From: Candidatus Cryosericum sp.
Lineage (GTDB): Bacteria; Caldisericota; Caldisericia; Cryosericales; Cryosericaceae
Length of the DNA: 64,000 bases
Direction of reading: 5' to 3'
NCBI GenBank assembly: GCA_049699855.1
Contig: JBNAWM010000001.1
Coordinates: forward strand, 62,885-126,884
Of this stretch, positions 2,852 to 58,431 are shown in pieces. The position numbers and the translations under genes were made by a program. Below the pieces are notes generated by a model, which saw nothing but the letters and a program-made list of their open reading frames with translations, searched no databases and had not been told where the DNA came from. Numbering within the stretch: position 1 is the stretch's first letter; the number at the start of each line of letters is the position of its first letter.

Positions 2852-2879
2852 ATTGTACTTCAAACCACTCCAGTGTCAA
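2852..2879 (-). promoter_or_regulatory. sigma70-type promoter of grpE-dnaK-dnaJ
   Basis: TTGACA-N16-TACAAT on the minus strand immediately upstream of CIRCE. Confidence 0.8.
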
Positions 2880-2959
2880 GCCGCCTCCTCACTTAAAAGC
2901 GTTGATTTCTCCTCTTATAGGATAATACTATGCTTGATTTACTCACTCGGAGGCAACTC

Positions 2960-3634
2960 ATGTATACAGACCGCATCACAAAAAAAGAGCTTGCCCGCTT
3001 CATGGACCATACGCTCCTCAAGCCTGAAGCTACTTCCAGGGATATTGAGCAGCTGTGCACAGAGGCGATCAACCTCGGAACATTTGCAGTGTGCGTCAAT
3101 TCGTCGATGGTGGAGACTGCATCGGCATGTCTGAGCGGATCTGGCGTTCACATCGCGTCGGTCGTCGGATTTCCTCTTGGAGCATGCACACAGTCAGCCA
3201 AGGCTCGCGAAACCGAACTGGCAGTCAGACAAGGAGCTTCAGAAATCGACACCGTAATCCACATTGGATGGCTCAAAGAGAAGAGCTACCGTGCTGTCGC
3301 AAGTGACATCAAAGCCGTGGTTGACGCCGCGGGAGACGCTCTTGTGAAGGTTATTATCGAAGCCTGCTTGCTGTCTGATGAAGAAAAGAGAATAGCCTGT
3401 GCCATTGCTGTCTCTGCGGGAGCGGGCTATGTCAAGACCAGCACTGGTTTCAGCAAATCGGGTGCCAGTGAAGATGACGTGCGCCTGATGCGCGAGGTTG
3501 TGGGCCCCATGATCGGAGTCAAGGCAGCAGGCGGGATTCGCGACCTTCGTACTGCCGTTGCCATGCTCAATGCTGGAGCCTCCCGCCTGGGCGTGTCCTC
3601 ATCGGCCGCCATTCTCGCAGAGGCACAAGAATAG
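2960..3634 (+). CDS. deoC: Deoxyribose-phosphate aldolase
   Basis: DHTLLKP, VVGFPLG, VKTSTGF, VKAAGGIR motifs; GGAGG RBS before ATG at 2960. Confidence 0.97.
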   Translation: MYTDRITKKELARFMDHTLLKPEATSRDIEQLCTEAINLGTFAVCVNSSMVETASACLSGSGVHIASVVGFPLGACTQSAKARETELAVRQGASEIDTVIHIGWLKEKSYRAVASDIKAVVDAAGDALVKVIIEACLLSDEEKRIACAIAVSAGAGYVKTSTGFSKSGASEDDVRLMREVVGPMIGVKAAGGIRDLRTAVAMLNAGASRLGVSSSAAILAEAQE

Positions 3635-3640
3635 CAGTCG

Positions 3641-4393
3641 ATGGCGTATCATTGGACACTGGCCTCGATTCTAAATACGTCCAGACAGGGCGAAAAGGAC
3701 AAGCGGCTGGTGCTCTTTTCCAGGGAACTGGGCAAGGTCAGCGCTGTCGCACGAGGATCCGCAGTTGCTGGGACAAAGTGGTCAACATCATTTGAGCCGT
3801 TCTCTCTGCTGTATCTCCGGCTCTATGAGCGTTCACACTTTTTTACTGTCGTCAGCTCCGAGGAACGAGCGGTCTATACGGGGATTCTCTCATCCCTGTC
3901 AAAATCGCTTCGGGGAATGGCCATGAATCAGCTGGTCTCCTGCTTTGTGGAACCACTGTCAGAAGAACCGGAGCTGTTTGCTTCATACGTTACCGCTCTT
4001 TCACACCTGAACATGGCCAAAGCGACCGAAGATGAAGATAGAGTGTTCCTGGAGTTCACGCTGGATATCCTCGACGAACTCGGGTTCGGGCTCGCCTCTC
4101 CACGCTGTGAACGCTGTGGGGAAGCCCTTGGTGACGCAGTCTTCTTCTCGCCGCAGGACAACGCCTTCCATTGTGCGCACTGCGCCTCGTCCGAACCTGA
4201 CATTCTCCTCTCCTCTGAACTTACCGGCTTTCTTCAGTTGAGGCAGGGCTCTCTGGATGAGCACCATGTCCTCATCGGCATCGCGCTGTCTCTTCGACTG
4301 CTCCGGTCTGCCGCGGCAAAACTGGCCAAAGAGCAGTCCTTTGAAGCTTTCGCTCGAAATACCGCTACACTGTTTGGCAGTACTATCACCTAA
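3641..4393 (+). CDS. recO: DNA repair protein RecO
   Basis: N-terminal OB-fold pattern ([15 protein letters not shown]...FEPFS), CxxC..CxxC zinc finger, upstream of glyQ. Confidence 0.88.
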
Positions 4394-4412
4394 AATCGTG
4401 AGGAGTCACAGT

Positions 4413-5261
4413 ATGAATTTTGAACAAATGGTTGCCAAGTTGGAGCAGTTCTGGGCGGATGAGGGATGCACGCGTCTGTTTCCCTACGACCAGGAAGTGG
4501 GCGCCGGAACACTCAGTCCGTACACATTTCTCCGAGTGTTGGGCCGCAAGCCTTGGAATGTCGTGTATGTCCAACCTTCGCGACGGCCCGCAGACGGCCG
4601 CTATGGCGAAAACCCGAACCGGCTGTACATGCACCATCAGTTGCAGGTCATCGTCAAACCCCCAACAAAGGATATCCAGGATACGTACCTGCGCAGTCTG
4701 TACCTTTTGGGATTGAAGCCCGCCGAGCACGACATTCGCTTTGTCGAGGACAACTGGGAGACGCCTGTGCTCGGTGCTGCCGGCGTCGGATGGGAAGTTT
4801 GGCTTGATGGCATGGAAGTCACGCAGTTCACCTACTTCCAGCAGGCAGGCGGACTTGAAGTCCCGGTCGTAGCCGTAGAGATCACCTACGGTCTCGAACG
4901 GCTTGCCATGTTTGTTCAGCAGAAGACAAACGTCTATGACCTCGAATGGCACCAGGGCATGACCTATGGCGACCTTAGGCAACAGGTCGAGAGGGAAAAC
5001 AGCGTCTATTCGTTTGAACAGGCAGACGTCGAGGCATTGGTAACGATGTTTGAACTCTGCGAAAGGGAATCACAGCGCATGATCGACGCAAAGCTCATCA
5101 CCCCCGCATACGAATACCTGTTGAAGTGTTCTCATACCTTCAACATCCTGGATGCGCGGGGCACGGTCGGCGTTTCCCAGCGGATGGCGTATCTGGCTCG
5201 CGTCCGCAAGCTCGCCTATGGCTGCGCAAATCTCTATCTGGAGAATGAGAACAATGGCTGA
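4413..5261 (+). CDS. glyQ: Glycine--tRNA ligase alpha subunit
   Basis: [35 protein letters not shown]; GAGGAG RBS. Confidence 0.98.
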
Positions 5262-7329
5262 TTTACTGATCGAGATCCTTACGGAAGAACTGCCTGCACG
5301 CTTCATCACCGATGCCCAAGCTCTCATGGCGGAACGGGTCAGCTCACACCTTGACGCACTTTCCATTCACCATGGAAACGTTCGCAGCTTCTCGACTCCT
5401 CGCCGGCTTGTCGTGCTTGTCGAAGATGTCGCCGAAGAAACGGAAAGCCGGACGATGAATATCAAGGGGCCTGCCGCCTCCATAAGCTATGATGCACAAG
5501 GGAATCCAACCCCCGCTCTGATCGGTTTCTGCAAAGGACAGGGCGTCGATCCCGCTGACGTGCACGTTGAAGATCAACAGGGGAAATCGTACGTGTATGC
5601 AACCAAGAAAATGCCTGGCCAGAAAGCAAGTGAATTGGTTGAATCGTTTCTTTCACACCTGCCTCGCGAGATCACCTTTCCAAAGATGATGCGGTGGGAA
5701 GAGTCCGGATTCCAATTTGCCCGTCCGATTCGCGGCCTGACGGCCTTGTTCGGAGGCGAGACGCTTCACTGGCACATAGCAGATGTCGATGGCTCCAACA
5801 CGACATTTGGGCTTCGCGTTGGAAAACCCAAGCCACTTGTCGTGTCCTCTCCTGACGACTATATGAGGAAACTGCGCGAGGCATTTGTCATCGTTGACCC
5901 CTCTGAACGCCACAGACTCATAGAAAAACAGGCAGAGAAGATCCTGAAACCTCTCGAAGCCAACCTGGGCAGCAATTTCGGTGACCTGCTGGGTGAGGTC
6001 GTGAACCTCGTCGAGTATCCCTCGGTCTTTCTCGGCAGTCTTCCAGACATAGCAGTAGAGCTTCCTGAAAGCGTTGTCCGCTCTGTGCTGAGTCAACAGA
6101 TGCACTCGTTTCTTGTCTATGACGGAAGTGGTCGTGTCCTGCCATATTTCCTCAGCGTGCGCAATGGTTTGACCGACTTTATCGAGACCGTGCGCCATGG
6201 CAATGAGAACGTCGCCAGAGCTCGTCTCATGGATGCCGCATTCTTCATAAGTGAAGACACGCGTAAGCCGCTGGAAACGTATGTCGATCAACTGGACTCT
6301 CTTATTTTCATGGATGCGCTGGGCACGATGGCGCAGAAGACAGCGCGTCTGGAACAGCTCGCCTCCGCTGCTCAGGACTATGCCTCAGTGACGCCGGAAG
6401 AAAGCAGGATGCTGGCTCTCGCCGCGCATCTGTCCAAAGCGGACCTCGCCACCAACATGGTGAAAGAGTACACGTCGCTGCAGGGCGAAATCGGCAGCGT
6501 CTATCTGGAACGAACAGGAGCTCCAGCAGAGCTTTCACAGGCTGTTCGAGAGCAGTACATACCGCGTTCTCCGTCGGAGAACATCGCTCAGACCAAGATT
6601 GGTCGCTTGCTCGGCATGATCGACAAGGTTGATACCATCACCGGAATTCTGGGCACGGGTTTCAATCCTTCTGGATCTGAAGACCCATATGGTCTGCGCC
6701 GCGCAGGGAATGGCATCGTCCGTACGGTCATCGAGTCGGGCGATACGATCGACCTCGAGGTCCTTCTCGATAAGTCTGTCGCCGCATATTTGGCATCTGG
6801 GACCCTTGCTCATGCGGAGCAGCTGCAGGAGCGCGTTCGTGACTACCTCAAGAGTCGCATCCTGCAGTACTTCAAAGAAAAGCGTCTTGCAAACGAATAC
6901 GCTCCATTTGAGAACCTCCCACTGAAAGACCTGGGGTCGGTGCTTGACCGGATGCGCGCATTGCAGGAAGAAGGCGGAAGCCCATCACTTCTTGCTCTTG
7001 CCGACAGCCACCGTCGCATACAGAATATCACCAAGGGGCTTGCGGAAGTGCCGAGCCTGCCTGCCGACCTGCTCCTGACCGAACCGGAGGAGATTCAACT
7101 GAGGCGTGCTGCTGAAGAAGCACTTCCGCGCGTCGAGCAGTTGTTGGCGTCTCGCCAGTACTCGAAGGCTGTCAATGCTTGTGAAGAACTCTCAGGGCCA
7201 ATCACGGTCTTCTTCGACAGGATTCTGGTCATGGCCATTGATGAAAATGTGAGAAGTGCGCGATTATTGCTTTTGTGCCATCTGAAGTATATACTTGGGC
7301 GTGTTTGCGACTATTCCAAGCTAACTTAA
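5254..7329 (+). CDS. glyS: Glycine--tRNA ligase beta subunit
   Basis: [29 protein letters not shown]; start overlaps the glyQ stop. Confidence 0.97.
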
Positions 7330-7346
7330 GCTTGACAGGAGGAACC

Positions 7347-10001: not shown

Positions 10002-10016
10002 GCCGCATCCACATAC

Positions 10017-11123: not shown

Positions 11124-11213
11124 CGAAGCTTCTCTGACTGTGTGATCAGTGTGAGGAGGACTGGAACGATTCCAGCCTCCTCTTTCGTATACCTAGATGG
11201 TGAGAAGTCGGAC

Positions 11214-12905
11214 ATGGAATACAAAGACTATATTGCCGAAGTAAGCTCCAAGATCGGCATTGTCGACGTTATTGGGCACTACGTGAAACTGCGCAAGCAG
11301 GGACGCAACTACGTCGGGCTTTGCCCCTTTCATCATGAGAAGACCCCGTCGTTCACCGTAAGTCCCGACAAGAACATGTTCTATTGCTTCGGCTGCAAAG
11401 CGACCGGGGACATGCTGACATTCATTCGAAAGATACACAACGTGTCCCTGCCTGAGGCAATCGAGATTGTCTCCAAGGAATTCGATGTCGAACTGCCTCC
11501 ATGGCACATGTCCACCACTGCTTCGCGGGAACGCCAGGAGCTTCTCCAAGCGCTCAAGATAGCTGCCGAGGCCTTTTCCACTTTCCTGCAAGGCAGCCAG
11601 GCTGACGTGTGCCGTGCGTATGTGCAACGACGGCAGTTGAGCCCCGACATTGTCCAGCGTTTCTCTCTTGGATACTGCCCCCGCAATGTCGAAGCTCTTG
11701 TTGCGTGGTGCGCTGACCATGGAGTCGACGCAAACGCGCTTGCGCGGGCGGGGATTGTTCAGCAGCGTGAGGGACATGTCTTTTCGCCCTTTGCGCACCG
11801 CCTGATATTCCCCATCTGGGACAGCATCGGAAACATCATTGCCTTCGGGGGCAGGTCCATCGACGGAACCATGCCCAAGTATACCAACAGCCCCGAGACC
11901 CCGCTCTTCTCAAAGAGAAAGACGCTTTATGCGCTTCCACTTGCCGAGCCGGCGATCCGAAAGGAAGGCATGGCCATTGTTGTTGAAGGATACATGGATG
12001 CGATTGCTCTCCATGCTGCTGGCTTTCCTCAGACAGTAGCATCGCTGGGAACCGCGTTTACTGAGGAACAAGCAACCCTTCTCAAGCGAAGCGCTTCACG
12101 CGTCCTGCTGAACTTTGACAGCGATGAAGCTGGACAGAGAGCTGCCCGCCTTGCTCTCTCGACCTCCGATCGAACGGGGTTGGACGTAGCTGTCGTGAGA
12201 GTGGCAGGGGCCAAGGATCCTGACGAACTGCTACATGAGGCGGGAGGGAAAGAACTCTATCAGGCCGCTCTGGATCAGGCAATTTCCGTGGGCGATTTCC
12301 TGATTGAAGCTGCCACGCGAGGCAAAGACATGAACTCTGTGACTGGCCGCAGGAGTTTCGTGCAGGAGATGATGGAGTCTGTTGACGACATGCAGGACTC
12401 CCTGCTCAGGACACAGTTGCTTACCCAGATTGCGCGGCGGGTGGGTGTTCGCGAAGACGAGGTGCTTGGCATGTATCGCAAGGGACGTGCGCGCGTTGAC
12501 CAGCCCAGTGCAGTCGACCCATGGAGAATCCCCCGAAAAAACCTCGGACATTCCAGGATTCCCACAGGCGCCTCGCTGCAAAGCAATCGCTCGATCCTTG
12601 AAAGAGATGTCGCTCATGGTCTGGTTCATAACCTGGATCGGCTTTCGGAGGTACTTCCACTCCTGGAGCAGCTGACCTTTGAAGATGAAGTCCTGTCGGA
12701 GATTGTCAGTGTTTTACGTCGTGAGACCTCAACCGGATCGATGGTTGTACCGGCACTTGTTGCAGAGCTGAGTCCGGACGCTGCAGCGCTCGTTGGCCGC
12801 TGGAGCCTCGAAGACCACAAGTTGACTTTTCAGGGACTGAAAGACACGATTTCTGGACTGCTCAGAGTGCAATCAGCAGTAATACCCGGAGGAAATGCGA
12901 CATGA
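11214..12905 (+). CDS. dnaG: DNA primase
   Basis: [15 protein letters not shown] zinc-binding domain, [21 protein letters not shown]; start placed at MEYKD. Confidence 0.97.
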
Positions 12906-12924
12906 ATCGCGAAAGGAGCGGACA

Positions 12925-14385
12925 ATGGTAGAGAAGAGAACCACACATAAGAAGGTGACACGAGAGGTCCAGCCTGCAGCCAAGGAACAGGCCCCGCCCG
13001 AAAAGACGGTGCCTCCGTCAGAGGCAGTTCCCCAGAAGAATCTCCGAAAGGCTCGTGCCAAATCGCCCGAGAAGGAGGTCACTGCCGCGGCCGAACAATC
13101 GCCCGAAAAACACGCCCGCGCGAAAGCTCCCGCCGGTGCAAAAGGCACGAGGAAGAAAGAAAACGATGTCGATGACGAAGCACTGGATTCGGACCTGGAG
13201 GCTGACGAAGAGCAGGGGATCCTGCACGAAGAGCCTGCTCCCGGTCCACCACTTCCAAAGAAGCGCGAATTGCAGAAGCTCCTGCAAACAGCCCGTCAGC
13301 TGGGCATTCTCGATTATGACGCAGTCATGGACGCGCTCGAAAAATACGACATTCCCATCGACGACCTGGACACGTTCTATGACCGCATGGACTTCGAGGG
13401 AATCGTCTTCGGAACGCCGCGTTACATCAAATCTACCACCAAGAAAGCCACAGTGGCTCCGTCACTCCCCTCTATTATCCGTGTTACGACACAGGAGGAG
13501 CAGAATCCAATTCAGTCGTATCTGAGCGACATTGGCCGAGTGCCACTGCTCACCCCCGATCAGGAGAAATCTCTGGGAAAGAGCGTCATGGCTGGCGACA
13601 CCGAGGCAAGGCGTCAATTGATCGAAGCCAACCTCCGGCTTGTTGTGAGCATCGCAAAAAAATACACGGGACGAGGCCTGTCCTTCCTTGACCTGGTTGA
13701 GGAAGGCAACCTGGGCCTGATTCGAGCGGTCGAGAAATTCGACTACAAGCGCGGGTTCCGCTTCTCCACGTACGCCACCTGGTGGATCCGTCAGTCGATG
13801 ACCCGAGCGCTCGCTGACCAATCCCGCCTGATCAGGGTTCCGGTTCACATGGTCGAAAACCTGAACAAGATCGACAAGATCAAGAAATCCTTCCTGCAGG
13901 AGCACGGGCGCGAACCGACCAAGGAAGAACTAGCCACGGCCATGGGCATCCCCGTAAAGAAGATCGTCCGGTACCTGCGCCTCGGCCAGCAGCCGCTTTC
14001 GCTCGAAAACACAGTAGGAGATGAGGAAGAGAGTCGGCTGGAGAACTTCATCGAGGATGAAAAGAGCCCGTCGCCCGAGAAAGAAACGTTCAACAAATAC
14101 TATAAAGAACAGCTCGAACGCATTCTCGAGACGCTGCCCGAGCGAGAGAAAAAGATCCTGATTTACAGAGAAGGCCTTCAAGGTGAATACGAGCATACTC
14201 TGGAAGAGGTTGGAACCATGTTCCAAGTCACCCGTGAGCGCATCCGCCAGATCGAGGCTAAAGCCAAGCGCAAGCTCAAGGAGATCATCGCCAAGGAGAA
14301 CGGCATGAACGAGGAGGATATGCACAACGACGGCAATGTGATCCGGCACCGCACCTCCTCGAACAGAAGACGCTCCTCGTCCTAG
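12925..14385 (+). CDS. rpoD: RNA polymerase primary sigma factor (RpoD/SigA)
   Basis: [43 protein letters not shown]; long Lys/Ala/Pro-rich N-terminus; AGGAG RBS. Confidence 0.97.
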
Positions 14386-14406
14386 GAACCCTTAGTGAGT
14401 CCTATC

Positions 14407-14434
14407 TTGACAAGAGAGCCTTCGATAGTACAAT
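14407..14434 (+). promoter_or_regulatory. sigma70-type promoter of tRNA-Asn
   Basis: TTGACA-N16-TACAAT ending 12 nt upstream of the mature tRNA. Confidence 0.8.
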
Positions 14435-14446
14435 AATGCATGGTAT

Positions 14447-14522
14447 TCCCCGATAGCTCAACGGTGGTAGCACTGGACTGTTAATCCGGGGGTTGTAGGT
14501 TCGAATCCTACTCGGGGAGCCA
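14447..14522 (+). tRNA. tRNA-Asn (GTT)
   Basis: Cloverleaf TCCCCGA/TCGGGGA, anticodon loop CTGTTAA, TTCGAAT T-loop, encoded CCA. Confidence 0.97.
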
Positions 14523-14881: not shown

Positions 14882-14929
14882 TCGTGTTCAGTTCTTCGTC
14901 GTGCCGTCTGGCACGCTGCAAAAAGCAGT

Positions 14930-15783: not shown

Positions 15784-15811
15784 ATGATACCATTTGACAA
15801 TTCGCTGTCAA
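15784..15811 (-). promoter_or_regulatory. sigma70-type promoter for the GlsB-family gene
   Basis: TTGACA-N16-TATCAT with extended -10 TG. Confidence 0.72.
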
Positions 15812-17814: not shown

Positions 17815-17835
17815 GGTTCACCTCCTCTTTGTATG

Positions 17836-17864
17836 AAAAAAGCTCTCTGCCAGAGACAGAGAGC
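17836..17864 (-). terminator. Intrinsic terminator/attenuator in the rplJ leader
   Basis: GCTCTCTG-7nt-CAGAGAGC followed by TTTTTT on the minus strand, just upstream of the rplJ RBS. Confidence 0.8.
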
Positions 17865-17884
17865 CGAATTGCACATGATCAATA

Positions 17885-17946
17885 AGCGCAAACCGCCTCG
17901 GCGGGCAAGATTGAGGGGTGAACCCCGCTCGCTGTCTCAGGCTAAC
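17885..17946 (-). promoter_or_regulatory. L10 leader (ribosomal protein autoregulatory RNA)
   Basis: GAGACAGCG..GGGG-TTCA-CCCC..AATC..CCCGCCGAGG resembles the L10_leader AGACAG..CCGAGG core; located between rplA and rplJ. Confidence 0.7.
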
Positions 17947-17952
17947 AATAAC

Positions 17953-17980
17953 AGTATAGTCTAAAGTTTGCTGATGTCCA
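17953..17980 (-). promoter_or_regulatory. Internal promoter for rplJL overlapping the rplA 3' end
   Basis: TGGACA-N16-TATACT directly upstream of the L10 leader. Confidence 0.6.
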
Positions 17981-20188: not shown

Positions 20189-21397
20189 CTACTCCAGAAT
20201 CTTGGTAACGACGCCGGCGCCAACCGTACGCCCACCCTCACGGATGGCGAAGCGGAGGCCTTCCTCCATGGCAATGTGCGTCATGAGGGTCACGGTCATC
20301 ACAACATTGTCACCAGGCATGGCCATTTCCTGACCTTCAGGAAGGGCGATGGAACCGGTCACATCGGTGGTACGGAAGTAGAACTGGGGCTTGTAGCCAG
20401 GGAAGAAGGGCTTGTGACGGCCACCTTCTGCCTGGGACAGGATGTAGACCTGTGCCTCGAACTTTGTGTGCGGAGTGATGGAACCAGGCTTGACAATGAC
20501 CTGTCCACGGCGCACGTCGTCATGCTCGACGCCACGGAGCAGGAGTCCAACGTTGTCGCCTGCCTCGCCATCGTCCAGCAGCTTGTGGAACATCTCGATG
20601 CCGGTGACAACGGTCTTGCGGGTCTCTTCCGAGAGGCCGACGATCTCAACGTTGTCGCCCATCTTGACGATGCCACGCTCAATACGACCGGTAGCAACGG
20701 TGCCACGGCCTGTGATGGTGAACACGTCTTCAACGGCAAGCAGGAAGGGCTTGTCGGTTGGACGGACGGGGGTCGGGATGTAGGAATCGACGGCATCCAT
20801 GAGTTCCCAGATCTTGTCGGTCCACTCGTTCTTGCCACGGGAGCAGTCCCCTTCATACTCCATCGCCTTGAGGGCGGAACCACGGATGATGGGGGTTGCA
20901 TCTCCATCGAAGTCATTCTTCTTCAGGAGATCGCGGACTTCCATCTCGACAAGGTCGATCAGTTCGGGATCATCTACCTGGTCTACCTTGTTGAGGAAGA
21001 CCACGATCCTCGGGACATTGACCTGGTGCGCAAGCAGGAGGTGTTCACGCGTCTGAGGCATGGGGCCCTCGGATGCAGCCACAACGAGAATGGCCCCATC
21101 CATCTGGGCGGCACCGGTGATCATGTTCTTGATGTAATCTGCGTGCCCAGGGCAATCGATGTGCGCATAATGACGCTTCTCGGTTTCATACTCGGCATGG
21201 TGGGCATTGATCGTGACGCCACGGGCCTTCTCTTCCGGTGCGTTGTCGATCTCGTCGTACCGCTTGACCGCCGTATGGCCCAAGGTCGCAAGACACTTCG
21301 TGATCGCAGCCGTCAAGGTCGTCTTGCCATGGTCGACGTGACCGATGGTTCCGATGTTGACGTGCGGCTTGTTACGCTCAAACTTCTCTTTCGCCAT
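20189..21397 (-). CDS. tuf: Elongation factor Tu (tRNA-operon copy)
   Basis: [32 protein letters not shown]. Confidence 0.99.
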
Positions 21398-21635: not shown

Positions 21636-21663
21636 ATACTACTCGAAAAGCACAAGAAGTCAA
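21636..21663 (-). promoter_or_regulatory. sigma70-type promoter for tRNA-fMet/tRNA-Thr/tuf
   Basis: TTGACT-N16-TAGTAT. Confidence 0.65.
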
Positions 21664-22082: not shown

Positions 22083-22110
22083 AGTATAGGTGCAAAGCCT
22101 CCTCTGTCAA
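22083..22110 (-). promoter_or_regulatory. sigma70-type promoter of the Thr-Tyr-Gly tRNA operon
   Basis: TTGACA-N16-TATACT ending 13 nt upstream of tRNA-Thr. Confidence 0.82.
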
Positions 22111-25849: not shown

Positions 25850-25877
25850 AGAATACCATAAACGCGCGATTAGTCAA
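25850..25877 (-). promoter_or_regulatory. sigma70-type promoter of rplM-rpsI
   Basis: TTGACT-N16-TATTCT with extended -10 TG. Confidence 0.75.
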
Positions 25878-43782: not shown

Positions 43783-44991
43783 CTACTCCAGAATCTTGGT
43801 AACGACGCCGGCGCCAACCGTACGCCCACCCTCACGGATGGCGAAGCGGAGGCCTTCCTCCATGGCAATGTGCGTCATGAGGGTCACGGTCATCACAACA
43901 TTGTCACCAGGCATGGCCATTTCCTGACCTTCAGGAAGGGCGATGGAACCGGTCACATCGGTGGTACGGAAGTAGAACTGGGGCTTGTAGCCAGGGAAGA
44001 AGGGCTTGTGACGGCCACCTTCTGCCTGGGACAGGATGTAGACCTGTGCCTCGAACTTTGTGTGCGGAGTGATGGAACCAGGCTTGACAATGACCTGTCC
44101 ACGGCGCACGTCGTCATGCTCGACGCCACGGAGCAGGAGTCCAACGTTGTCGCCTGCCTCGCCATCGTCCAGCAGCTTGTGGAACATCTCGATGCCGGTG
44201 ACAACGGTCTTGCGGGTCTCTTCCGAGAGGCCGACGATCTCAACGTTGTCGCCCATCTTGACGATGCCACGCTCAATACGACCGGTAGCAACGGTGCCAC
44301 GGCCTGTGATGGTGAACACGTCTTCAACGGCAAGCAGGAAGGGCTTGTCGGTTGGACGGACGGGGGTCGGGATGTAGGAATCGACGGCATCCATGAGTTC
44401 CCAGATCTTGTCGGTCCACTCGTTCTTGCCACGGGAGCAGTCCCCTTCATACTCCATCGCCTTGAGGGCGGAACCACGGATGATGGGGGTTGCATCTCCA
44501 TCGAAGTCATTCTTCTTCAGGAGATCGCGGACTTCCATCTCGACAAGGTCGATCAGTTCGGGATCATCTACCTGGTCTACCTTGTTGAGGAAGACCACGA
44601 TCCTCGGGACATTGACCTGGTGCGCAAGCAGGAGGTGTTCACGCGTCTGAGGCATGGGGCCCTCGGATGCAGCCACAACGAGAATGGCCCCATCCATCTG
44701 GGCGGCACCGGTGATCATGTTCTTGATGTAATCTGCGTGCCCAGGGCAATCGATGTGCGCATAATGACGCTTCTCGGTTTCATACTCGGCATGGTGGGCA
44801 TTGATCGTGACGCCACGGGCCTTCTCTTCCGGTGCGTTGTCGATCTCGTCGTACCGCTTGACCGCCGTATGGCCCAAGGTCGCAAGACACTTCGTGATCG
44901 CAGCCGTCAAGGTCGTCTTGCCATGGTCGACGTGACCGATGGTTCCGATGTTGACGTGCGGCTTGTTACGCTCAAACTTCTCTTTCGCCAT
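43783..44991 (-). CDS. tuf: Elongation factor Tu (str-operon copy)
   Basis: Same protein as 20189-21397; follows fusA. Confidence 0.99.
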
Positions 44992-45004: not shown

Positions 45005-45008
45005 CTGA

Positions 45009-47099: not shown

Positions 47100-47121
47100 G
47101 CAATACCACTAACTCCTAACT

Positions 47122-47993: not shown

Positions 47994-48030
47994 ACAGGTT
48001 CCTCCTAAGAACGTAAATACACATCTCCAT

Positions 48031-48058
48031 ATAATACGCATTCGGAGCCATGTGTCAA
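48031..48058 (-). promoter_or_regulatory. sigma70-type promoter of the str operon
   Basis: TTGACA-N16-TATTAT. Confidence 0.8.
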
Positions 48059-48140
48059 GCACCGGCTCCTTGACAAACGATCATCCGGGGCCAAAGGTTC
48101 CGTTTCCAATGCCTCTGGCCCGACTTCTCACTATACAGCT

Positions 48141-51100: not shown

Positions 51101-52046
51101 TCAGGGAGCGCAGGGGACGTCCGTTGGCATTAATGACGGGGTATTGCCGCTTGCTGTTGTCCAGGAGAGCATCCACCGCATCCTGGAGCATGCGCTTCTC
51201 ATTCTGCAGAAGGATCTCTGGAGCGTTCTCCTCAATCATCTTGCCGAGTCGGTTGTTGCGGTTGATAACCCGGCGGTACAGCTCATTCAGGTCATCCGAG
51301 GCAAACCGTCCACCTTCAAGCTGAACGAGCGGCCGAAGGTCCGGCGGAATGACCGGAATGCGCGTCATGATCATGTCTGTGGGCTTCCGGCTGTTGTTGA
51401 TGAGTGCCGTGACCACATCCAGTTCCTTGACAGCTTTGGCACGATCCTGACGGGACTTGCCCTTGATCCGGAGCAGAAGCGCATCACGCATTTTGTATAG
51501 ATCAACATCCTTCAGGAGATCCAGAAATGCCTCTGCGCCCTTCTTGGCAACGAACTTCTCGCCCTTGATCTTGCGATCACGATATTCCTCATCCGTCAGC
51601 AACTGCTTTCGTACCAGACCCTCAGCATCGCCTGGATCCAGGACCAGCCAGCTGCCAAACGAGATGACCCTTTCCACTGCCTTGCTGGGCATTTCGAGAA
51701 GCAGAGCAATGTAATTGACAGCGTTCCGAAAATACCAGATGTGAGCGACCGGGGCATGCAGTTCGATATGCCCCATCCGTTCACGGCGGACACTTGAATC
51801 CGCTACTTCGACATGGCACTTGTCACACACTTGCCCCTCGAAGCTTTTTCCCTTGAGTTTGCCGCAACGGCATTGATAGCTCTTGGTCGGACCGAAGATG
51901 ATCTCACAGAACAATCCATGAGGCTTTGGTTTGCCACTGCGGTAGTCGAGCGTTTCAGCTTCGGTAACTTCTCCATGTGACCAGCTCCGTATTTCCTCTG
52001 GCGATGCCAGATGGAGGGCTAGAGCTTCTATCTTATTGTTTCTCAA
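48141..52046 (-). CDS. rpoC: RNA polymerase beta' subunit
   Basis: RFRQNLLGKRVDYSGR, NADFDGDQM, SGYLTRRLVD, GEPGTQLT; TTG start after GGGAGG. Confidence 0.99.
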   Translation of the reverse strand: MRNNKIEALALHLASPEEIRSWSHGEVTEAETLDYRSGKPKPHGLFCEIIFGPTKSYQCRCGKLKGKSFEGQVCDKCHVEVADSSVRRERMGHIELHAPVAHIWYFRNAVNYIALLLEMPSKAVERVISFGSWLVLDPGDAEGLVRKQLLTDEEYRDRKIKGEKFVAKKGAEAFLDLLKDVDLYKMRDALLLRIKGKSRQDRAKAVKELDVVTALINNSRKPTDMIMTRIPVIPPDLRPLVQLEGGRFASDDLNELYRRVINRNNRLGKMIEENAPEILLQNEKRMLQDAVDALLDNSKRQYPVINANGRPLRSLSDKLKGKEGRFRQNLLGKRVDYSGRAVIVSGPQLKISQCGVPKEMALELFKPHVIYRLMREGVVGSMKVAKDIVEKPTPEVWNILEKVVKGNVVLLNRAPTLHRLSIQAFEPVLIDEKAIQISPLVCTPFNADFDGDQMAIHLPLSLAAQTEARLLMLSSYNIFSPASGNPMAGPVQDMVLGSYYLTYEVKDKMKAMKWNSAPVYSERDVLYLFESGKLRVHDPVLVRIGTAKIRTTAGRVVFNDELRSGIFEGEAKYADFPFVNKTMPKKEIEAMILDFSRQFGVSKASVLLDNIKALGFKYATESGMSIGLSDMEVPPERKHILDDADRTVREINNFYDEGLLSYTDRYLKVVKVWQEKGEEIEKAVFRNLTEENSVRIMADSGARGSKKQIVQMTGIRGLMSDPSGKIIEFPIKSNLREGLSVLEYFLSTHGTRKGQADTALKTSDSGYLTRRLVDVAHELVVREQDCTHSVAREIKIGNLVVSPLSDELAGKIADEKVVNPLTGETIIEPGEEISWEQAKRLESLGLKSLKIQRYVGGLMVQPVVDGGAVIVGLKEQIAGRYAADDIVLRASTIPVNPGWSRTTLERIMERPLAEDIVSSDGARTVGKKGEPLTDKVLAAAKRGGIASVQVAVDEDIVLVPKDGLIRDEIAVAIEQFGITSVRLRSPITCQSENGVCAMCYGRDLSTGGDVQVGEAVGVIAAQSIGEPGTQLTLRTFHTGGIAVVDITTGLPRVEEIFEGRTPKGQALVSPIDGVFRLAELKEKGQEDRKQIIIADGAGIEVKFKVSANARFRVKDGDHVMVGEQLTEGSIDPKNLLELVGVEETARYLVQEVQKVYRSQGVDINVKHVEMIIRQMLKKVKVIDPGDTTFFTDQIVSKHELLHQNRKVRAQGGKPASFDLVLQGITKSSLETDSFLSAASFQETPRVLADAAIKGKIDRLTGLKEAVIVGKSIPAGTSSPELIFANRDAQLEAEPPKRLGMR

Positions 52047-52061
52047 TCTTCCTCCCTTGGG

Positions 52062-54149
52062 CTACTCTTCTTCCTCAGCGACCATCGTAGCCTTGGCGTC
52101 GGCAATGATCTTCTCGGCGATTCGCTCTGGTACTTCCTCATAATGATTGACCTTCATGGAATATGAACCGGTTCCCTGGGTGATTGAGCCCAGATCGATC
52201 CCATAATTGAGCATCTCTGCCAGTGGAACGGAAGCTTTGATAATCTGCTTCCCATTGACGTTTTCCATGCCTGAAATCTTGCCGCGCTTGCTGGTCAGAT
52301 CTCCCATGACGTCGCCCATATACTTCTCATCAACAACGACCTCGAGGGCAACGATGGGCTCGAGAAGAACGGGGTTGCACTGCTCAAACCCTTTCTTGAA
52401 AGCAAGCGATCCTGCAAGTTTGAAAGCCATCTCGGATGAATCGACTGGATGATACGATCCGTCCACAACAGCAACCTTGATGTCCACGGCTGGATAACCA
52501 GCCAGCTGGCCCTTGGCCATCGTTTCGAGCATTCCCTTCTCAATAGCGGGGATGAACTGCTTCGGAATGGCTCCACCAAACACCTTGTTCTCAAAGACCC
52601 AGCCGCCGCCACGTTCATTCGGCTCCATCTCGATCCAGCAATGTCCAAACTGACCATGGCCTCCGGTCTGCTTCTTGTGTTTTCCTTCAACGCGTGCCTT
52701 TCCCTTAATTGTTTCACGGTAAGGTACCCGCGGCGTTTCAAGGTCAATGCCTACACCAAATTTCTTCTGAAGGCGCTCGACAATGACCTGGAGGTGCGCT
52801 TCTCCGAGGCCGCTCATGATGGTCTCATGAGTCTCTGCATTTTTCTCAATGATAACAGCCGGTTCTTCCTCTTTCAGACGATTGAGTGTCGAACTCAGCT
52901 TGTCATCGTCAGCCCTTGTTCTCGGCTTCAGAGAGCGCATGAGAAGTGGCTGAGGGAAAACGATGGGTGCAAGTTCAATGGGGTCCTCGCGACAGGTAAT
53001 CGTATCATTCGTTGCGCTCACGACCAGCTTGGAGATAACCACAATGTCACCAGCGATACCCTCTTCCGCCGGTTCCTGCTTCTTACCTACCATATGGAAG
53101 AGCCCTCCAATCTTCTCAGAGGCATCCTTCGTCCCATTGTAGATCTCATGTGAGATCTTGCCGCTGTAGATGCGAACAAATGACAATTTGCCAACGAACG
53201 GATCGGACGTCGTCTTGAAGATAAAAGCAGACGGACGGGCAGAGGGATCTGCCCGAATCTCCACTGCATCGCCAGTGCTCCTCCGTTTCGCCTGAACGGC
53301 TACTTCGGCAGGAGACGGTGCGTAGGAGGCAAGGAAATCCATAACGTAGTCGCAACCGACTCCCTTCAGGGCCGAGATGCCAAGAACAGGGAATACCTGG
53401 CGACTCTTGAAGGCTTTCACAAACACCATCGTAAGCTCGTCCTGACTCAGAGCCTCGCCACCAAGGTATTTCTCCATCACTGCATCGTCCGACTCCGCAA
53501 CAGCCTCTGTCAGAGCCAGGCGCGCCGCCTCATATTCCGAACGGATGCTCTCGGGAATGGCATCGGAAATGACCGCCTCGTCCTTGCCTGCTGGGTACGA
53601 ATAGAGCTTGCCAGTCAAGACGTTTACGAATGAGGAGAAGCCCGGGCCAGAAGCAATCGGGATTGTCAGGGCAGCGACCTTGAGGCCAAAAGCTGCCTGC
53701 AACTCCTCGACTCGCTGAACGAAATTCACGTTTTCCAAGTCAACCTTGTTCACCAACAGGGCGACGGGAATCCCCTGAGCCTCGCAAAGATTCCAGAACC
53801 GGGGAGTCTGAACTTCGACACCGGCCCCCGCGTTGATGGTAAGCAAAGCCGTGTCGGCAACCCGGATACCCTCCTGAACCTCTGTCATGAAATCAGCATA
53901 TCCAGGAGTGTCCAGCAGATTCAGCCGGGTCCCCTTGTAGTCAAACTCACACAGACCAATGCTGGTACTGATGTGGCGTTTCACTTCCTCGTCCAAGTAG
54001 TCTGAGACTGTTGTTCCGTCCTCGACACGGCCAACTCGCTGGCTTGCCCCTGCACGAAACAGCAGGCGCTCTGTGATCATGGTTTTGCCGGAGCTTCCTT
54101 GTCCAACAAGCGCAAAGTTTCTGATGTCACTCGGGCTGAATCTGCTCAC
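52062..54149 (-). CDS. fusA2: Elongation factor G paralog (EF-G2/EF-G-II type)
   Basis: Full five-domain EF-G length (695 aa) with G1 GQGSSGKT, G3 DTPGY, G4 [23 protein letters not shown]; GTG start after GGGGAGG. Confidence 0.93.
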   Translation of the reverse strand: MSRFSPSDIRNFALVGQGSSGKTMITERLLFRAGASQRVGRVEDGTTVSDYLDEEVKRHISTSIGLCEFDYKGTRLNLLDTPGYADFMTEVQEGIRVADTALLTINAGAGVEVQTPRFWNLCEAQGIPVALLVNKVDLENVNFVQRVEELQAAFGLKVAALTIPIASGPGFSSFVNVLTGKLYSYPAGKDEAVISDAIPESIRSEYEAARLALTEAVAESDDAVMEKYLGGEALSQDELTMVFVKAFKSRQVFPVLGISALKGVGCDYVMDFLASYAPSPAEVAVQAKRRSTGDAVEIRADPSARPSAFIFKTTSDPFVGKLSFVRIYSGKISHEIYNGTKDASEKIGGLFHMVGKKQEPAEEGIAGDIVVISKLVVSATNDTITCREDPIELAPIVFPQPLLMRSLKPRTRADDDKLSSTLNRLKEEEPAVIIEKNAETHETIMSGLGEAHLQVIVERLQKKFGVGIDLETPRVPYRETIKGKARVEGKHKKQTGGHGQFGHCWIEMEPNERGGGWVFENKVFGGAIPKQFIPAIEKGMLETMAKGQLAGYPAVDIKVAVVDGSYHPVDSSEMAFKLAGSLAFKKGFEQCNPVLLEPIVALEVVVDEKYMGDVMGDLTSKRGKISGMENVNGKQIIKASVPLAEMLNYGIDLGSITQGTGSYSMKVNHYEEVPERIAEKIIADAKATMVAEEEE

Positions 54150-54171
54150 CTGTTCCTCCCCTTAGAGAATG

Positions 54172-57100
54172 CTATTCGTTGTCTTCAAGCAGTAGCTTTG
54201 TACTCTTTGCATAAACTTCTCCGGCTTTCGGCAGGCTCTCGAGATCGAGTCCCAGCCCTCGAAGCTCCTTCACAAGAACATTGAAGGATTCAGGGAAGCC
54301 AGTTTCGAACAGGTTGTTTCCCTTTGTCAAGCGCTCATACGCAACGCGCCTTCCCTCAAGGTCATCTGACTTGATTGTCAGCATCTCCTGCAAGACAGTG
54401 GAAGCACCATAGGCTTCGAGAGCCCAGACCTCCATCTCTCCAAAACGCTGACCACCAAACTGAGCTTTACCGCCGATTGGCTGCTGAGTGATAAGCGTGT
54501 AGCGGCCAGTCGAACGAGCATGCATCTTGTCCTCGGCCAAGTGGATGAGCTTCAGGATATACGCTTCTCCAACAGTGACCTTGCTGTCAAACTCATTGCC
54601 ATAGACTCCGTCACGAACAATCTCTTTGCCGCTTTCGCTCAGGCCCGCCTTGACGAGAAGGGCTTTGATTTCCTCCTCGGTGGCTCCGTTGAACACAGGA
54701 GTGAGAGCTCGCACGTTCAACTTCCGGGCTGCGATACCCAGGCTGGCTTCGAGCAGCTGGCCAATATTCATACGAGACGGCACGCCCAGTGGACTCAGGA
54801 TGACATCCACCGGAGTTCCATCTTCAAGGAACGGCATATCCTCCTCTGGCAGGATACGGGTAATGACGCCCTTGTTTCCATGGCGGCCTGCAACCTTATC
54901 TCCAACGATGATTTTGCGTTTTTTGGCAACGTACACCTTGATGATGCGTTCAACGCCAACAGGGAGCGTATCGCTCGTGCTGTCTTTCGTGATCTCCTGC
55001 ACGTCGATGACAACTCCATCCTCTCCTGGTGGCACTTTATACGATGTATTCTTGTAGTCGCGGGCTTTGTCATGGAACAACGCAAAGTAGACTCGTACCT
55101 CTGGCGATTCCTCCTGCTCAGCCCTTGGAGTGATTTTTCCAACCAGGACATCCTCGGCCTTGACATGTGCCCCAATCTGAACAACGCCTCGATCGTCCAG
55201 GTGTCGTGCCAGCTCCTTGGAGACATTGGGGGGATCCCTCGTGATCTCCTCCTTGCCGAACTCGGTGGACCTGACCTCGATCTTGTGTTCCTTGATATGA
55301 ATGGACGAGAGACTGTCGTCACGCACAAGGCGCTCACTGACGATGACTCCGTCCTGATAGTTGTATCCGCGCCACGGAACGTACGCCACGAGGAGGTTCT
55401 TTCCCAAGGCAAGCTCTCCGTCCACGGAGGCATATCCATTGGCAAGCAGATCGCCTGCGTGTACCTCGTCCCCAATCGAAACAGCCGGGTGCTGGTTGAT
55501 ACATGTATCCTGATTGGTTCTCTTGAATTTCTGAAGTTCGAAGACACGAGCCTGAGGCACAGACACGTGCGTCACCCCGTTCTTTGCCATGAGAATCAGG
55601 TCTGCACGCGTCAACTTCCTTCCCACCGTCAGTTTCTTCGCCTTGGGTTTCCGAAGTTGAACATCCTCTGCCAGCGTCTGTCCCACCAGCGAACCATTGA
55701 CACGGAACAACTCATAGGCTGCAGTCTTCGCAGGGTCATACGTGAGAATGCTCGCATTCTTGTCTTGCATCAGCAGGTCACGGAGGCTCTCCTCCGAAAC
55801 AATACGACCCGCACTGGAACTCAGATCCTGAGTCGAGCTCACGCGCAGGATCCTGTGGCCGAGTACCTGCTGTCCAATTGGCGTCATAGACAGAATCTGA
55901 AGATCAGCCTCGACGACTTCGTCGCCTCTCTGGATCGGAAGAGATCGGATCTTCGCATTGTTGATCAGGCGGCCAAGCAATGTTTCAGTGATCTTCGTAC
56001 CGGCTTTGTGTACCTTGCTCTTGCCTTCCTGGACATCCTGTGCCAGAGACTGTCCGATCAGGTCCTCGTTCGTCTGAACATCGAACAGGTCCGTAAGCGA
56101 GTTCTGTACAATAGAACCAGCGGGAACGTATTGAAAAGACTCGACGCCCTCGTCGGCCAGAGCTTCAATCTGCTCATGTGAAATCTCGGATCCAATCAAT
56201 GCAAGGACTTCTTCCGGGACACCCTCGGGAGCAAACGAAATCGGAACCATTCGCGCTTCGCCAATGATGCCAGGTTCCTCCGCCTCGGCAGCAAGCATGA
56301 CGGGAATCACGTCGACAGCGACCGAGCCAGATTGAAGATCTTCGGCAGTCACCAAGGGCGATACTCTTATCTGTTCGGCATCAACGTAGGAGACAACTCC
56401 GTCAACATCACTCAGGACCAGGTCTCCGTTATCACGAACCACCCGTCCTTCCATGGTAGTTGAAACACGGGTCTGGTCTGGCCGCACAAGAGGCACTGCC
56501 TGTCGCTGCATGTTACAGCCCATGAGTGCGCGGTTTGCATCATCATGCTCGAGAAACGGAATCAGTGAGGCTGAGATTCCAAATATCTGCGAGGGCAGCA
56601 GATCGATGTAATCGACCTTGTTCGCGGGAACCTCTTTTGGAAGGATCTCTCCCCCCTCACTACGCTGTCTCGCAATGACGGTCTTCGAGGTGAGTCTGCC
56701 CTCATCATCGACGGCAGTGTTCGCCTGGGCAATCGAATAGTGTTCTTCCTCTTCTGCATCCATATAGACAACATCGCGCTCATCCTTGCGCCCATTGGAG
56801 ACCTTGGCATAGGGAGCGGTAATGAAACCATATTGATCAAGCGTTGCATACGAGCTGAGGCTGTTGATCAAACCTATGTTTCCACCCTCAGGCGTCTCGA
56901 TGGGACAAATGCGGCTGTAGTGTGAGGAGTGGATGTCGCGTACCTCTACCCCAGCACGCTTCCTGTTCAATCCACCTGGTCCAAGAGAACTGAGACGCCT
57001 CTTGTGCGCCAGACTCGAAAGAGGGTTGATTTGTTCCATGAATTGCGACAATTGGCTCTGCCCGAAGAAATTCCTGATCGACGAAATGATCGGTTTGGTG

Positions 57101-58359
57101 TTCAGGACATTCTGAAGATTCATCATCTGCTCCGAAGAGTAGATCGTGACCTTGTCACGCGTTGCTTTGGCTACCTTCAGCATGCTGTCCTGGATTTCCT
57201 CAGCCAGCAGTTCACCGACGCATCTGATACGGCGGTTCGCCAGACTGTCGATATCATCGAAACTGGCCTTGCGCTCGCGTATGTCGATCAAATGCCGGAT
57301 GATCGCTATGTAATCATCGGTGGTGAGGACTGACGATGACGTCCCTGTCCCGAACCGCTTGTTGATTTTGTAGCGCCCGATGGGCGTGTAGGTATTGTAC
57401 GCTTCATCGGTGAGCAGCGTCGAGAGGAGATTCTGGGCCGCCTCAATGGTGAGGCGCTCCTTCGGCTGCATCTCCTTGAAGATCTGCTTGATGGCATCTT
57501 CCTGGTTCGTCGTTTTGTCAACACTGAGCGTCTTGAGGATCCAGCGGTCTGGCTGACTGCTGCTGACCAGGAACAGGCTGATACCGTGGTTTTCAAGAAG
57601 GCTGAGGGCTTTGCCGTTCAGGACTGCTCCCTCCTTGATGATCTCCTTCCCTCTTGAATCGAGAAGCGGTTCAGCAGCTCGGTATTCAGTCTGTTCAATA
57701 GCCGACCGAAGCTGCTCGACCGGCATGCGCTCGGTTTTTTCGACGGTGAACAGGCGCTTGATCTCTTCGTTCGATTCAATGCCCAGTGCCTTCAGAACAA
57801 GGGTCACGGGGATCTTGTGAGCTTTCTTCCGCAAGCGGGTGTAGATCACGTCATCCTTGCCAGCCTCAATTTCCATCCAGTTGCCTCTGTCTGGAATGAG
57901 AGTGACCATGAACACCTGAGCGCCTGAAAGTTTGTCCTTGCCACCTTCAAAATAAACGCCGGGGGAACGGACAAGCTGTGAGACAATCACACGCTCCGCC
58001 CCATTGATGAGAAAGGTTCCATACGCAGTCATGAGAGGAATCTGGGTGACGATCAACGGCTGCTCGCGAATCTCACCGGTTTCCTTGTTGATCAGCCTGA
58101 AGTTGGCGCGAATCATGGCCTCGTAGCTCAGTCCGGCCTTGCGGCAACTCTCCATTGATCTCCCAGGTCGTTCCGTGTCGTGGCTCACATACTCGATCCG
58201 CAGCTTTGCGGTGTCGATGGGAAAAACTCTCGTAAAGATCTGAGCAAGACCTGGTCCCAGAAGCCAATCATAAGATGTCTTCTGGAGCTGGAGGAGGTCG
58301 GGCATCGCGTAACTTGATTTGATTTTGGTAAAGTCTATAATGTTCGCTGCCACGCGCAT
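54172..58359 (-). CDS. rpoB: RNA polymerase beta subunit with large lineage-specific insertion
   Basis: INGAERVIVSQL, CPIETPEGGNIG, GDKVAGRHGNKG, GGQRFGEMEVWAL. Confidence 0.99.
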   Translation of the reverse strand: MRVAANIIDFTKIKSSYAMPDLLQLQKTSYDWLLGPGLAQIFTRVFPIDTAKLRIEYVSHDTERPGRSMESCRKAGLSYEAMIRANFRLINKETGEIREQPLIVTQIPLMTAYGTFLINGAERVIVSQLVRSPGVYFEGGKDKLSGAQVFMVTLIPDRGNWMEIEAGKDDVIYTRLRKKAHKIPVTLVLKALGIESNEEIKRLFTVEKTERMPVEQLRSAIEQTEYRAAEPLLDSRGKEIIKEGAVLNGKALSLLENHGISLFLVSSSQPDRWILKTLSVDKTTNQEDAIKQIFKEMQPKERLTIEAAQNLLSTLLTDEAYNTYTPIGRYKINKRFGTGTSSSVLTTDDYIAIIRHLIDIRERKASFDDIDSLANRRIRCVGELLAEEIQDSMLKVAKATRDKVTIYSSEQMMNLQNVLNTKPIISSIRNFFGQSQLSQFMEQINPLSSLAHKRRLSSLGPGGLNRKRAGVEVRDIHSSHYSRICPIETPEGGNIGLINSLSSYATLDQYGFITAPYAKVSNGRKDERDVVYMDAEEEEHYSIAQANTAVDDEGRLTSKTVIARQRSEGGEILPKEVPANKVDYIDLLPSQIFGISASLIPFLEHDDANRALMGCNMQRQAVPLVRPDQTRVSTTMEGRVVRDNGDLVLSDVDGVVSYVDAEQIRVSPLVTAEDLQSGSVAVDVIPVMLAAEAEEPGIIGEARMVPISFAPEGVPEEVLALIGSEISHEQIEALADEGVESFQYVPAGSIVQNSLTDLFDVQTNEDLIGQSLAQDVQEGKSKVHKAGTKITETLLGRLINNAKIRSLPIQRGDEVVEADLQILSMTPIGQQVLGHRILRVSSTQDLSSSAGRIVSEESLRDLLMQDKNASILTYDPAKTAAYELFRVNGSLVGQTLAEDVQLRKPKAKKLTVGRKLTRADLILMAKNGVTHVSVPQARVFELQKFKRTNQDTCINQHPAVSIGDEVHAGDLLANGYASVDGELALGKNLLVAYVPWRGYNYQDGVIVSERLVRDDSLSSIHIKEHKIEVRSTEFGKEEITRDPPNVSKELARHLDDRGVVQIGAHVKAEDVLVGKITPRAEQEESPEVRVYFALFHDKARDYKNTSYKVPPGEDGVVIDVQEITKDSTSDTLPVGVERIIKVYVAKKRKIIVGDKVAGRHGNKGVITRILPEEDMPFLEDGTPVDVILSPLGVPSRMNIGQLLEASLGIAARKLNVRALTPVFNGATEEEIKALLVKAGLSESGKEIVRDGVYGNEFDSKVTVGEAYILKLIHLAEDKMHARSTGRYTLITQQPIGGKAQFGGQRFGEMEVWALEAYGASTVLQEMLTIKSDDLEGRRVAYERLTKGNNLFETGFPESFNVLVKELRGLGLDLESLPKAGEVYAKSTKLLLEDNE

Positions 58360-58382
58360 GGCTCTCCTTTCATATCGGTATG

Positions 58383-58425
58383 AAAAAAAGCGGTCAAATC
58401 AAAAGTCTACTCTCTTTTGATTGAC
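58383..58425 (-). terminator. Probable intrinsic terminator of the ntp-NUDIX-acyltransferase-GT2 transcript
   Basis: GTCAATCAAAAG-8nt-CTTTTGATTTGAC (12 bp, one bulge) then CGC and T7. Confidence 0.6.
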
Positions 58426-58431
58426 AGTCAA
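58404..58431 (-). promoter_or_regulatory. sigma70-type promoter of rpoB
   Basis: TTGACT-N16-TAGACT, overlapping the terminator hairpin. Confidence 0.62.

Follow-up and report, generated by a model that had tools for sequence, protein, structure and literature searches.

Promoters in the window

The stretch analysed here (the window) comprises 64,000 nucleotides from Candidatus Cryosericum sp., an uncultured member of the class Caldisericia of the Caldisericota (GenBank assembly GCA_049699855.1, contig JBNAWM010000001.1, positions 62,885 to 126,884). It carries genes for the housekeeping sigma factor RpoD, for the RNA polymerase (RNAP) subunits RpoB and RpoC and for GrpE and DeoC, along with genes for ribosomal proteins and tRNAs. 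RpoB, RpoC, GrpE and DeoC were confirmed by NCBIfam, and seven tRNA genes in the window were confirmed as well. The subject of this report is the distance between the -35 and -10 hexamers of the promoters that precede such genes. Nine clear promoters and a weaker tenth, picked by eye in the original prediction, had been said to share a spacer of 16 bp in place of the usual 17. All ten hexamer pairs were found in the window just where they had been reported, with exactly 16 bases between the boxes. They are listed here, together with an RNA feature that helps identify one of them; the basis of each assignment is in brackets.

2852..2879, minus strand: grpE promoter, TTGACA-N16-TACAAT (sequence check; conserved in 13 of 13 relatives)
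14407..14434, plus strand: tRNA-Asn promoter, TTGACA-N16-TACAAT (tRNA start 12 nt past the -10)
15784..15811, minus strand: promoter of a gene for a GlsB/YeaQ-like small membrane protein, TTGACA-N16-TATCAT (sequence check; intergenic scan)
17953..17980, minus strand: rplJ promoter, TGGACA-N16-TATACT (L10 leader directly downstream)
17827..17959, minus strand: ribosomal protein L10 leader RNA (Rfam RF00557, scoring 51.4 bits where the gathering cutoff is 44)
21636..21663, minus strand: promoter of the tRNA-Met/tRNA-Thr pair, TTGACT-N16-TAGTAT (sequence check; tRNA calls; intergenic scan)
22083..22110, minus strand: tRNA Thr-Tyr-Gly promoter, TTGACA-N16-TATACT (tRNA-Thr start 13 nt past the -10)
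25850..25877, minus strand: rplM promoter, TTGACT-N16-TATTCT (sequence check; intergenic scan)
48031..48058, minus strand: rpsL promoter, TTGACA-N16-TATTAT (sequence check)
58404..58431, minus strand: rpoB promoter, TTGACT-N16-TAGACT (sequence check; intergenic scan)
2902..2929, plus strand: candidate deoC promoter, TTGATT-N16-AATACT (-35 conserved, position of -10 not)

The accompanying remark, that no comparable 17-bp case was found, was borne out: a scan of the window gave no intergenic site with a 17-bp spacer and a -35 box of at most one mismatch. The rpsL promoter is masked in that scan, as a crude gene call places the start of the open reading frame (ORF) too early. At the two promoters so marked in the list, the -10 box is followed at 12-13 nt by the start of a tRNA gene, and the tRNA-Asn promoter has 16-bp counterparts at the equivalent position in two genomes of the same genus. 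The ORF downstream of 15784..15811, called GlsB, has only a weak match to that family. As to deoC, its -35 box, TTGATT (within GTTGATTTC), is invariant in 11 genomes, and the best -10 box lies at varying distances from it, with a 3-bp indel in the spacer.

Two of the -35 boxes lie within palindromes: that of the GlsB-like promoter within TTGACA-N6-TGTCAA (15794-15811, minus strand) and that of the rpoB promoter within TTGAC-T-GTCAA (58421-58431, minus strand). These palindromes could be operators, or they could be -35 boxes placed back to back.

The grpE promoter was followed in related genomes; the relatives of GrpE place the window's lineage in Caldisericota, near Candidatus Cryosericum. Among them, 13 had sufficient DNA upstream, and in all 13 TTGACA-N16-TACAAT recurs with both hexamers invariant and the spacer always 16 bp long; its upstream (5') half varies in sequence while the length stays the same. 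A second element lies just downstream of the -10 box and is conserved in 11 aligned genomes:

2815..2841, minus strand: CIRCE-like inverted repeat, TTAGCAGTC-N9-GACTGCTAA (right arm also given as GAGTGCTAA)

We take this repeat to be the CIRCE operator (controlling inverted repeat of chaperone expression), the target of HrcA. If so, it implies HrcA-type control of grpE-dnaK in this lineage. A sigmaA promoter with HrcA control is the usual arrangement for grpE in Firmicutes. On this reading, the promoter is not of the special kind read by a heat-shock sigma factor (sigma32). The spread of the 16-bp spacing to heat-shock genes, which the original prediction had pointed out, is then less remarkable than it seemed.

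Spacer lengths across the genome

The genome from which the window comes is a 1.63-Mb draft of 157 contigs. When TTGACN-Nx-TANNNT was counted over the whole of it on both strands, there were 97 matches at x = 16, 36 at 17, 30 at 18 and from 7 to 32 at other spacings. The genome was then divided into intergenic and coding DNA by our own rough gene calls, with one mismatch or fewer allowed in the -35 box. Intergenic counts for spacers of 15, 16, 17 and 18 bp were 25, 112, 37 and 33, against a background of 18.7 +/- 2.7 estimated from spacers of 12-14 and 19-22 bp. The peak at 16 bp stands far above this level (z about 35, Poisson p about 1e-48), and the coding DNA of the same genome is flat, with no peak at any spacing. 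After subtraction of the background, 71% of the excess falls at 16 bp, 14% at 17, 11% at 18 and 5% at 15, so the distribution is skewed toward long spacers, 17 and 18 bp being commoner than 15. The ratio of 16- to 17-bp sites was about 5:1, 5:1 and 3:1 at zero, one and two mismatches in the -35 box. The spacer by which sigma70/sigmaA promoters are usually recognized, centred on 17 bp, does not describe these sites, whose mode is 16.

What the sites look like was judged from the 78 of the 112 intergenic 16-bp sites that lie no more than 300 bp from the start of a downstream gene on the same strand. In the logo built from these, the -35 box reads T75 T75 G75 A71 C70 A56 (counts of 78), conservation that is mostly imposed by the selection for at most one mismatch, just as T-12, A-11 and T-7 of the -10 box are required by the scan. 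Among the remaining positions, the inner ones of the -10 box favour t, a and A/C, giving the consensus TAtaMT; position -8 is A or C, and -13 avoids T. Information is confined to cTTGACA and TAtaMT, with a weak preference for C or G just upstream of TTGACA, and in the logo of the 78 sites neither an extended -10 TG nor an A/T tract upstream is seen, nor is the spacer sequence conserved. Since the spacers are not conserved and only the canonical boxes carry information, the sites are ordinary sigmaA-type promoters rather than copies of a repeat.

The genes that follow perfect -35 boxes with 16-bp spacers are diverse and not limited to translation. A sample identified by Pfam includes GroES, a purine nucleoside phosphorylase, a cation efflux protein, a ROK kinase, a lipoate ligase, a GntR regulator, a MobA-like transferase, an ECF S-component and a Bax1-I protein. 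The genome-wide gapped-motif search that had been proposed as a check therefore peaks at 16 bp rather than 17, and does so before many kinds of gene, not only those for stable RNA and ribosomal proteins. Several of the 16-bp promoters (for example those at C9:2569, C16:9603 and C85:5177, the contig number preceding the position) end only 0-12 nt before the start of the longest ORF, with ileS and valS among the genes concerned. Either the genes truly start further downstream or some of the mRNAs are leaderless.

Strong promoters with 16-bp spacers are familiar from E. coli, where those called rrn P1 drive stable-RNA and translation genes. It might be, then, that the RNAP of Cryosericum still prefers 17 bp and that a suboptimal 16 has been selected throughout the genome for the short-lived, tunable open complexes that such promoters form, under the influence of nucleoside triphosphates or ppGpp, or of a CarD-like stabilizer. 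The rrn P1 promoters are very strong in vivo, tRNA and ribosomal-protein operons lie behind many of the best sites in this genome, and a sequence by itself cannot tell an optimal spacing from a selected one. However, the 16-bp spacer prevails among strong and weak promoters alike and in front of genes as unrelated as those for metabolism, transport and regulation. The companions of the rrn P1 spacer are also missing: instead of a GC-rich discriminator, there is one that leans toward AT (43% GC, compared to 56% for intergenic DNA), and the region from -59 to -38, at 57% GC and with no information content, offers no A/T-rich UP element. A design like that of rrn P1, with its GC-rich discriminator, UP element and restriction to stable-RNA and translation genes, was rejected on all three counts. 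Two findings taken up below also speak against selection on an unchanged enzyme: none of the other phyla among 67 surveyed has such a pattern, and the shift coincides with remodelled elements by which region 4 of sigma (sigma4) is docked. Overall, selection of a suboptimal spacer is an unlikely explanation.

Phylogenetic extent in the Caldisericota

To see how far the preference extends, TTGACA-N16-TANNNT and its counterparts with 17- and 18-bp spacers were counted in 71 genomes of Caldisericota, the same pattern read backwards serving as control. In the 12 genomes of the window's own genus (family f1), there were 665, 313 and 136 matches at 16, 17 and 18 bp (control about 60), and in the 62 genomes of its class (families f1-f6), 3684, 1876 and 1276. 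The nine genomes of the sister class (f7) gave 122, 189 and 157 (control about 45), or 23%, 43% and 34% once the background is subtracted. The controls, then, were low. Taken genome by genome, the mode is 16 in all 62 members of the class, hence in every family sampled, and in the sister class it is 17 in seven genomes and 18 in two, with none of the nine at 16. The ratios of 16- to 17-bp sites in individual genomes do not overlap, being at least 1.09 in the class and at most 1.00 in the sister class (Mann-Whitney p=1.5e-6). Pooled over the phylum, the 17-bp share is 28.3%.

Modes of 17 or 18 bp, as in the sister class, are the usual bacterial picture. Because the sister class yields them by identical counting, it serves as an internal control that the method recovers 17 where 17 is expected. 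As far as predicted promoters can tell, the counts place the shift between 16 and 17 bp on the stem of the window's class.

The comparison bears on two alternatives that would leave the enzyme out of account. The first is an artefact, arising from sites picked by eye, from base composition, from codon periodicity or from a repeated element. The original prediction had itself warned that its promoters were picked by eye, and our gene calls are crude. Nevertheless, the peak emerges from an unbiased count and in intergenic DNA only, a result that removes the feared bias. The backwards controls are low and the spacers are not conserved, findings that together exclude a repeat family or an effect of composition, and the preference is replicated in 62 genomes of one class and reversed in nine of the other. 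We give an artefact almost no credence.

According to the second alternative, the enzyme is unchanged and it is the DNA that differs: an altered twist in vivo, brought about by supercoiling, temperature or nucleoid proteins, would bring boxes 16 bp apart into phase. It is true that effects of spacer length interact with supercoiling. On the other side, the class spans thermophiles (Caldisericum) and organisms of permafrost (Cryosericum), and all of its sampled families have a mode of 16. We estimate that twist varies physiologically by about 10 degrees per spacer, far less than the roughly 34 degrees contributed by each base pair. GyrA and GyrB are both present in the genome, so absence of gyrase was rejected as a cause. 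An altered twist is thus a very improbable source of the shift.

The sigma factor and its docking site

If the spacing is set by the holoenzyme, one may look for its basis in the sigma factor and in the flap of the beta subunit, the pertinent parts of which are:

12895..14385, plus strand: rpoD, 496 aa, the genome's sole sigma factor of RpoD type
14101..14103, plus strand: Tyr403 of RpoD, in helix H1 of region 4, at the position of Leu540 of E. coli sigma70 (role in flap-tip contact: PMC3950348)
14281..14382, plus strand: C-terminal tail of RpoD in place of the conserved helix H5 (HPSRS..L.DFL), by alignment
55057..55107, minus strand: flap-tip helix of RpoB, SPEVRVYFALFHDKARD, as aligned without gaps to the five best solved RNAPs
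55525-56412, minus strand: about 290 aa inserted in RpoB (residues 650-945), immediately before the flap domain on its N-terminal side

From region 1.2 to region 4.2, the RpoD encoded in the window aligns without gaps to solved SigA proteins of Firmicutes and to the RpoDs of both classes, and its motifs for contact with DNA, YATWWIRQ and TRERIRQIE (regions 2.4 and 4.2), are intact. From the gapless alignment and the canonical motifs it follows that neither the length of the linker nor an altered recognition of the boxes explains the shift; linker length was rejected on this ground. The same features bear on the idea that a different register or a different sigma is at work, so that 16 is merely a consequence of how the hexamers are drawn. 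The weak extra preference for C or G upstream of TTGACA would fit such an idea, but the genome has a single RpoD-type sigma with canonical -35 and -10 recognition motifs, information falls exactly on TTGACA and TAnnnT, and the same counting gives 17 and 18 in the sister class. A change of register or of sigma is extremely doubtful.

Differences do appear in region 4, when 15 RpoDs of the class are set beside five of the sister class and two references (from B. subtilis and S. aureus). The sister class and the references have Leu at the position equivalent to Leu540, where each of the 15 RpoDs from the class has Tyr, Ser or Phe. Helix H5 is kept in the five sister-class proteins and has been replaced by unrelated tails in all 15 of the class. 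In the solved group-1 sigmas that were checked (from Firmicutes, E. coli, Thermus, mycobacteria and Streptomyces), 12-13 residues follow the H5 point. The tail in the window's genus has 33 residues, ending RRRSSS, and other families of the class have short tails that differ from it. At its N-terminus, RpoD of the genus is also extended by about 120 aa, in which K, P, E and A abound (12895-13260, plus strand). A gene for a second RpoD-like protein was seen in one genome of family f6 (locus L038 in genome G070), with about 250 additional residues on the C-terminal side of its sigma domain.

The other side of the interface is also unusual. The flap tip in the five solved RNAPs is canonical, TPEE(R/K)LLRAIFGEKARE, and that of the window's RpoB deviates from it. 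Caldisericaceae, a second family of the class, has SEARLFRNLFNNRAGN, which is likewise non-canonical and differs from the version in Cryosericum, and the RpoBs of other phyla keep the canonical form.

The possible relation of the spacing to insertions in beta and beta', suggested in the original prediction, finds no support in these data. Among 1.8 billion representatives, the large insertion in RpoB occurs in three clusters only (those of the window's genus and one RpoB of 1397 aa at 26% identity), and the zipper/Zn-finger region of beta', considered as a cause, was rejected when no indel was found in it.

Interpretation

The preference for 16 bp holds genome-wide and across kinds of genes, is kept at orthologous promoters, and is found in every sampled genome of the class and not in the other class. 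That it reflects a real preference of the holoenzyme in this lineage is very probable. What in the holoenzyme might be responsible is suggested by what is known of the parts just described. Region 4 is docked on the flap tip through its helices H1, H2 and H5, and this docking places it so that the -35 and -10 boxes can be contacted at the same time (PMC2988021; PMC3950348), the residues touching the flap being L350, L354 and A357 in T. thermophilus, equivalent to L540, T544 and V547 in E. coli (PMC2988021; PMC3950348). Since the changes in H5 and at the Leu540 position coincide with the boundary between 16 and 17 bp, and in view of the docking role described in the literature, the interface is a plausible cause.

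In the model proposed here, the cTTGACA...TAtaMT promoters would be read by the single housekeeping sigma encoded in the window, whose region 4 would be held about one base pair (roughly 3.4 A and 34 degrees) nearer to region 2. The reason would be a remodelled interface between region 4 and the tip of the beta flap, with H5 replaced, the equivalent of Leu540 changed and the flap-tip helix no longer canonical. As a whole, sigmaA-type promoters whose preferred spacing of 16 bp comes about through remodelled docking of sigma4 appear to be the best explanation, one that we consider somewhat probable from the sequences compared. That part of it that names the sigma4/flap-tip interface as the cause is tentative. 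The changed geometry between regions 2 and 4 of sigma that the original prediction had proposed is retained in this explanation and now has correlates in sigma4 and the flap tip, but it is still inferred.

Several points weigh against the explanation. Sites with 17- and 18-bp spacers persist in the Cryosericum genome, where they account for some 25% of the excess. The DNA of families f5 and f6 is rich in AT and gives a high background, and in f6, represented by two genomes, the excess at 16 bp is not significant (p=0.08). The promoters are predictions from sequence. Also, 23 columns of the sigma alignment separate the two classes, as expected for a deep divergence, so the changes in H5 and at Leu540 are correlates and not proof. 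Finally, of the two sides of the interface, sigma alone is linked to the boundary between 16 and 17 bp: the comparison of flap tips, by word-index search, covered the window's genus, Caldisericaceae and other phyla, with no match assignable to the sister class.

Relation to known systems

The promoters of Cryosericum share with canonical sigma70/sigmaA promoters (TTGACA-N17-TATAAT, in E. coli, B. subtilis and most phyla) the -35 and -10 consensus, the type of sigma and the position upstream of protein and RNA genes. They differ in their modal spacer, 16 bp (71%) instead of 17, and in having no extended -10 TG. With E. coli rrn P1 they share the 16-bp spacer and the association of strong promoters with stable-RNA and translation genes, but here the spacing extends to genes of all classes genome-wide, without the GC-rich discriminator or UP element. 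In Bacteroidota, sigmaA promoters have the elements -33 TTTG and -7 TAnnTTTG, tied to a divergent primary sigma. Both cases are departures from E. coli geometry throughout a lineage; in Bacteroidota the elements themselves are altered, whereas here they are canonical and the spacing alone has shifted.

Certain phage proteins, AsiA and MotA of T4 and gp39 of a Thermus phage, act on the same interface, namely H1 and H5 of region 4 together with the flap-tip helix, and they show that it sets the position of region 4 relative to the part of sigma that reads the -10 box (PMC2988021; PMC3950348). The phage factors act in trans and abolish the use of the -35 box, unlike the change in the Caldisericia, which is apparently permanent in the subunits of the host and preserves -35 recognition.

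A spacer of 17 bp is textbook knowledge and has been called invariant by recent surveys across phyla, and promoter predictors hard-code either 17 or a symmetric range of 16-18. The ProFinder preprint of September 2026 (bioRxiv 10.64898/2026.09.23.753901) reports that the median spacer was 17 bp in each of the 49 genomes whose transcription start sites were mapped and that, of 67 phyla, 60 were enriched in 17-bp spacers and none was significantly depleted in them. The lowest 17-bp share of the 67, 30.3% within the 16-18 window, is that of Caldisericota, a value that the preprint treats as "indistinguishable from baseline" in concluding that the canonical spacer holds. Given our pooled share of 28.3%, the anomaly is visible in independent data. 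The preprint has neither the 16-bp mode nor the split between classes nor a correlate in RNAP. Apart from its remark, we found no published description of promoters in Caldisericota.

If the preference is real, then an optimum of 16 bp throughout a class would show that the spacing rule can shift, and lineages such as this one would be natural experiments in how the geometry of the holoenzyme and thousands of promoters evolve together. It is possible, though we hold it only tentatively, that the rule of 17 +/- 1 has evolved in just this fashion: docking of sigma4 on the flap tip would have been rebuilt at the base of the class Caldisericia, by replacement of H5, by substitution of Leu540 with residues that include aromatic ones and by recoding of the flap-tip helix, bringing region 4 one base pair closer, and the promoters would have followed. 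In any event, sister classes at 16 and 17 bp offer a clean contrast for finding the parts of the enzyme that set the distance, the interface of H5 and H1 of sigma4 with the flap tip being one candidate. The result may also be of use in annotating and engineering Caldisericota and in tuning promoter finders for uncultured lineages.

Neighbouring genes

Between rpoB and rpoC lies a gene for a protein of the elongation factor G family, 695 aa in length (52062-54149, minus strand; NCBIfam elongation factor G subfamily, 873 bits). The window also contains two tuf genes (20189-21397 and 43783-44991, both on the minus strand), which are 100% identical over 1209 nt, an identity that suggests ongoing gene conversion between them.

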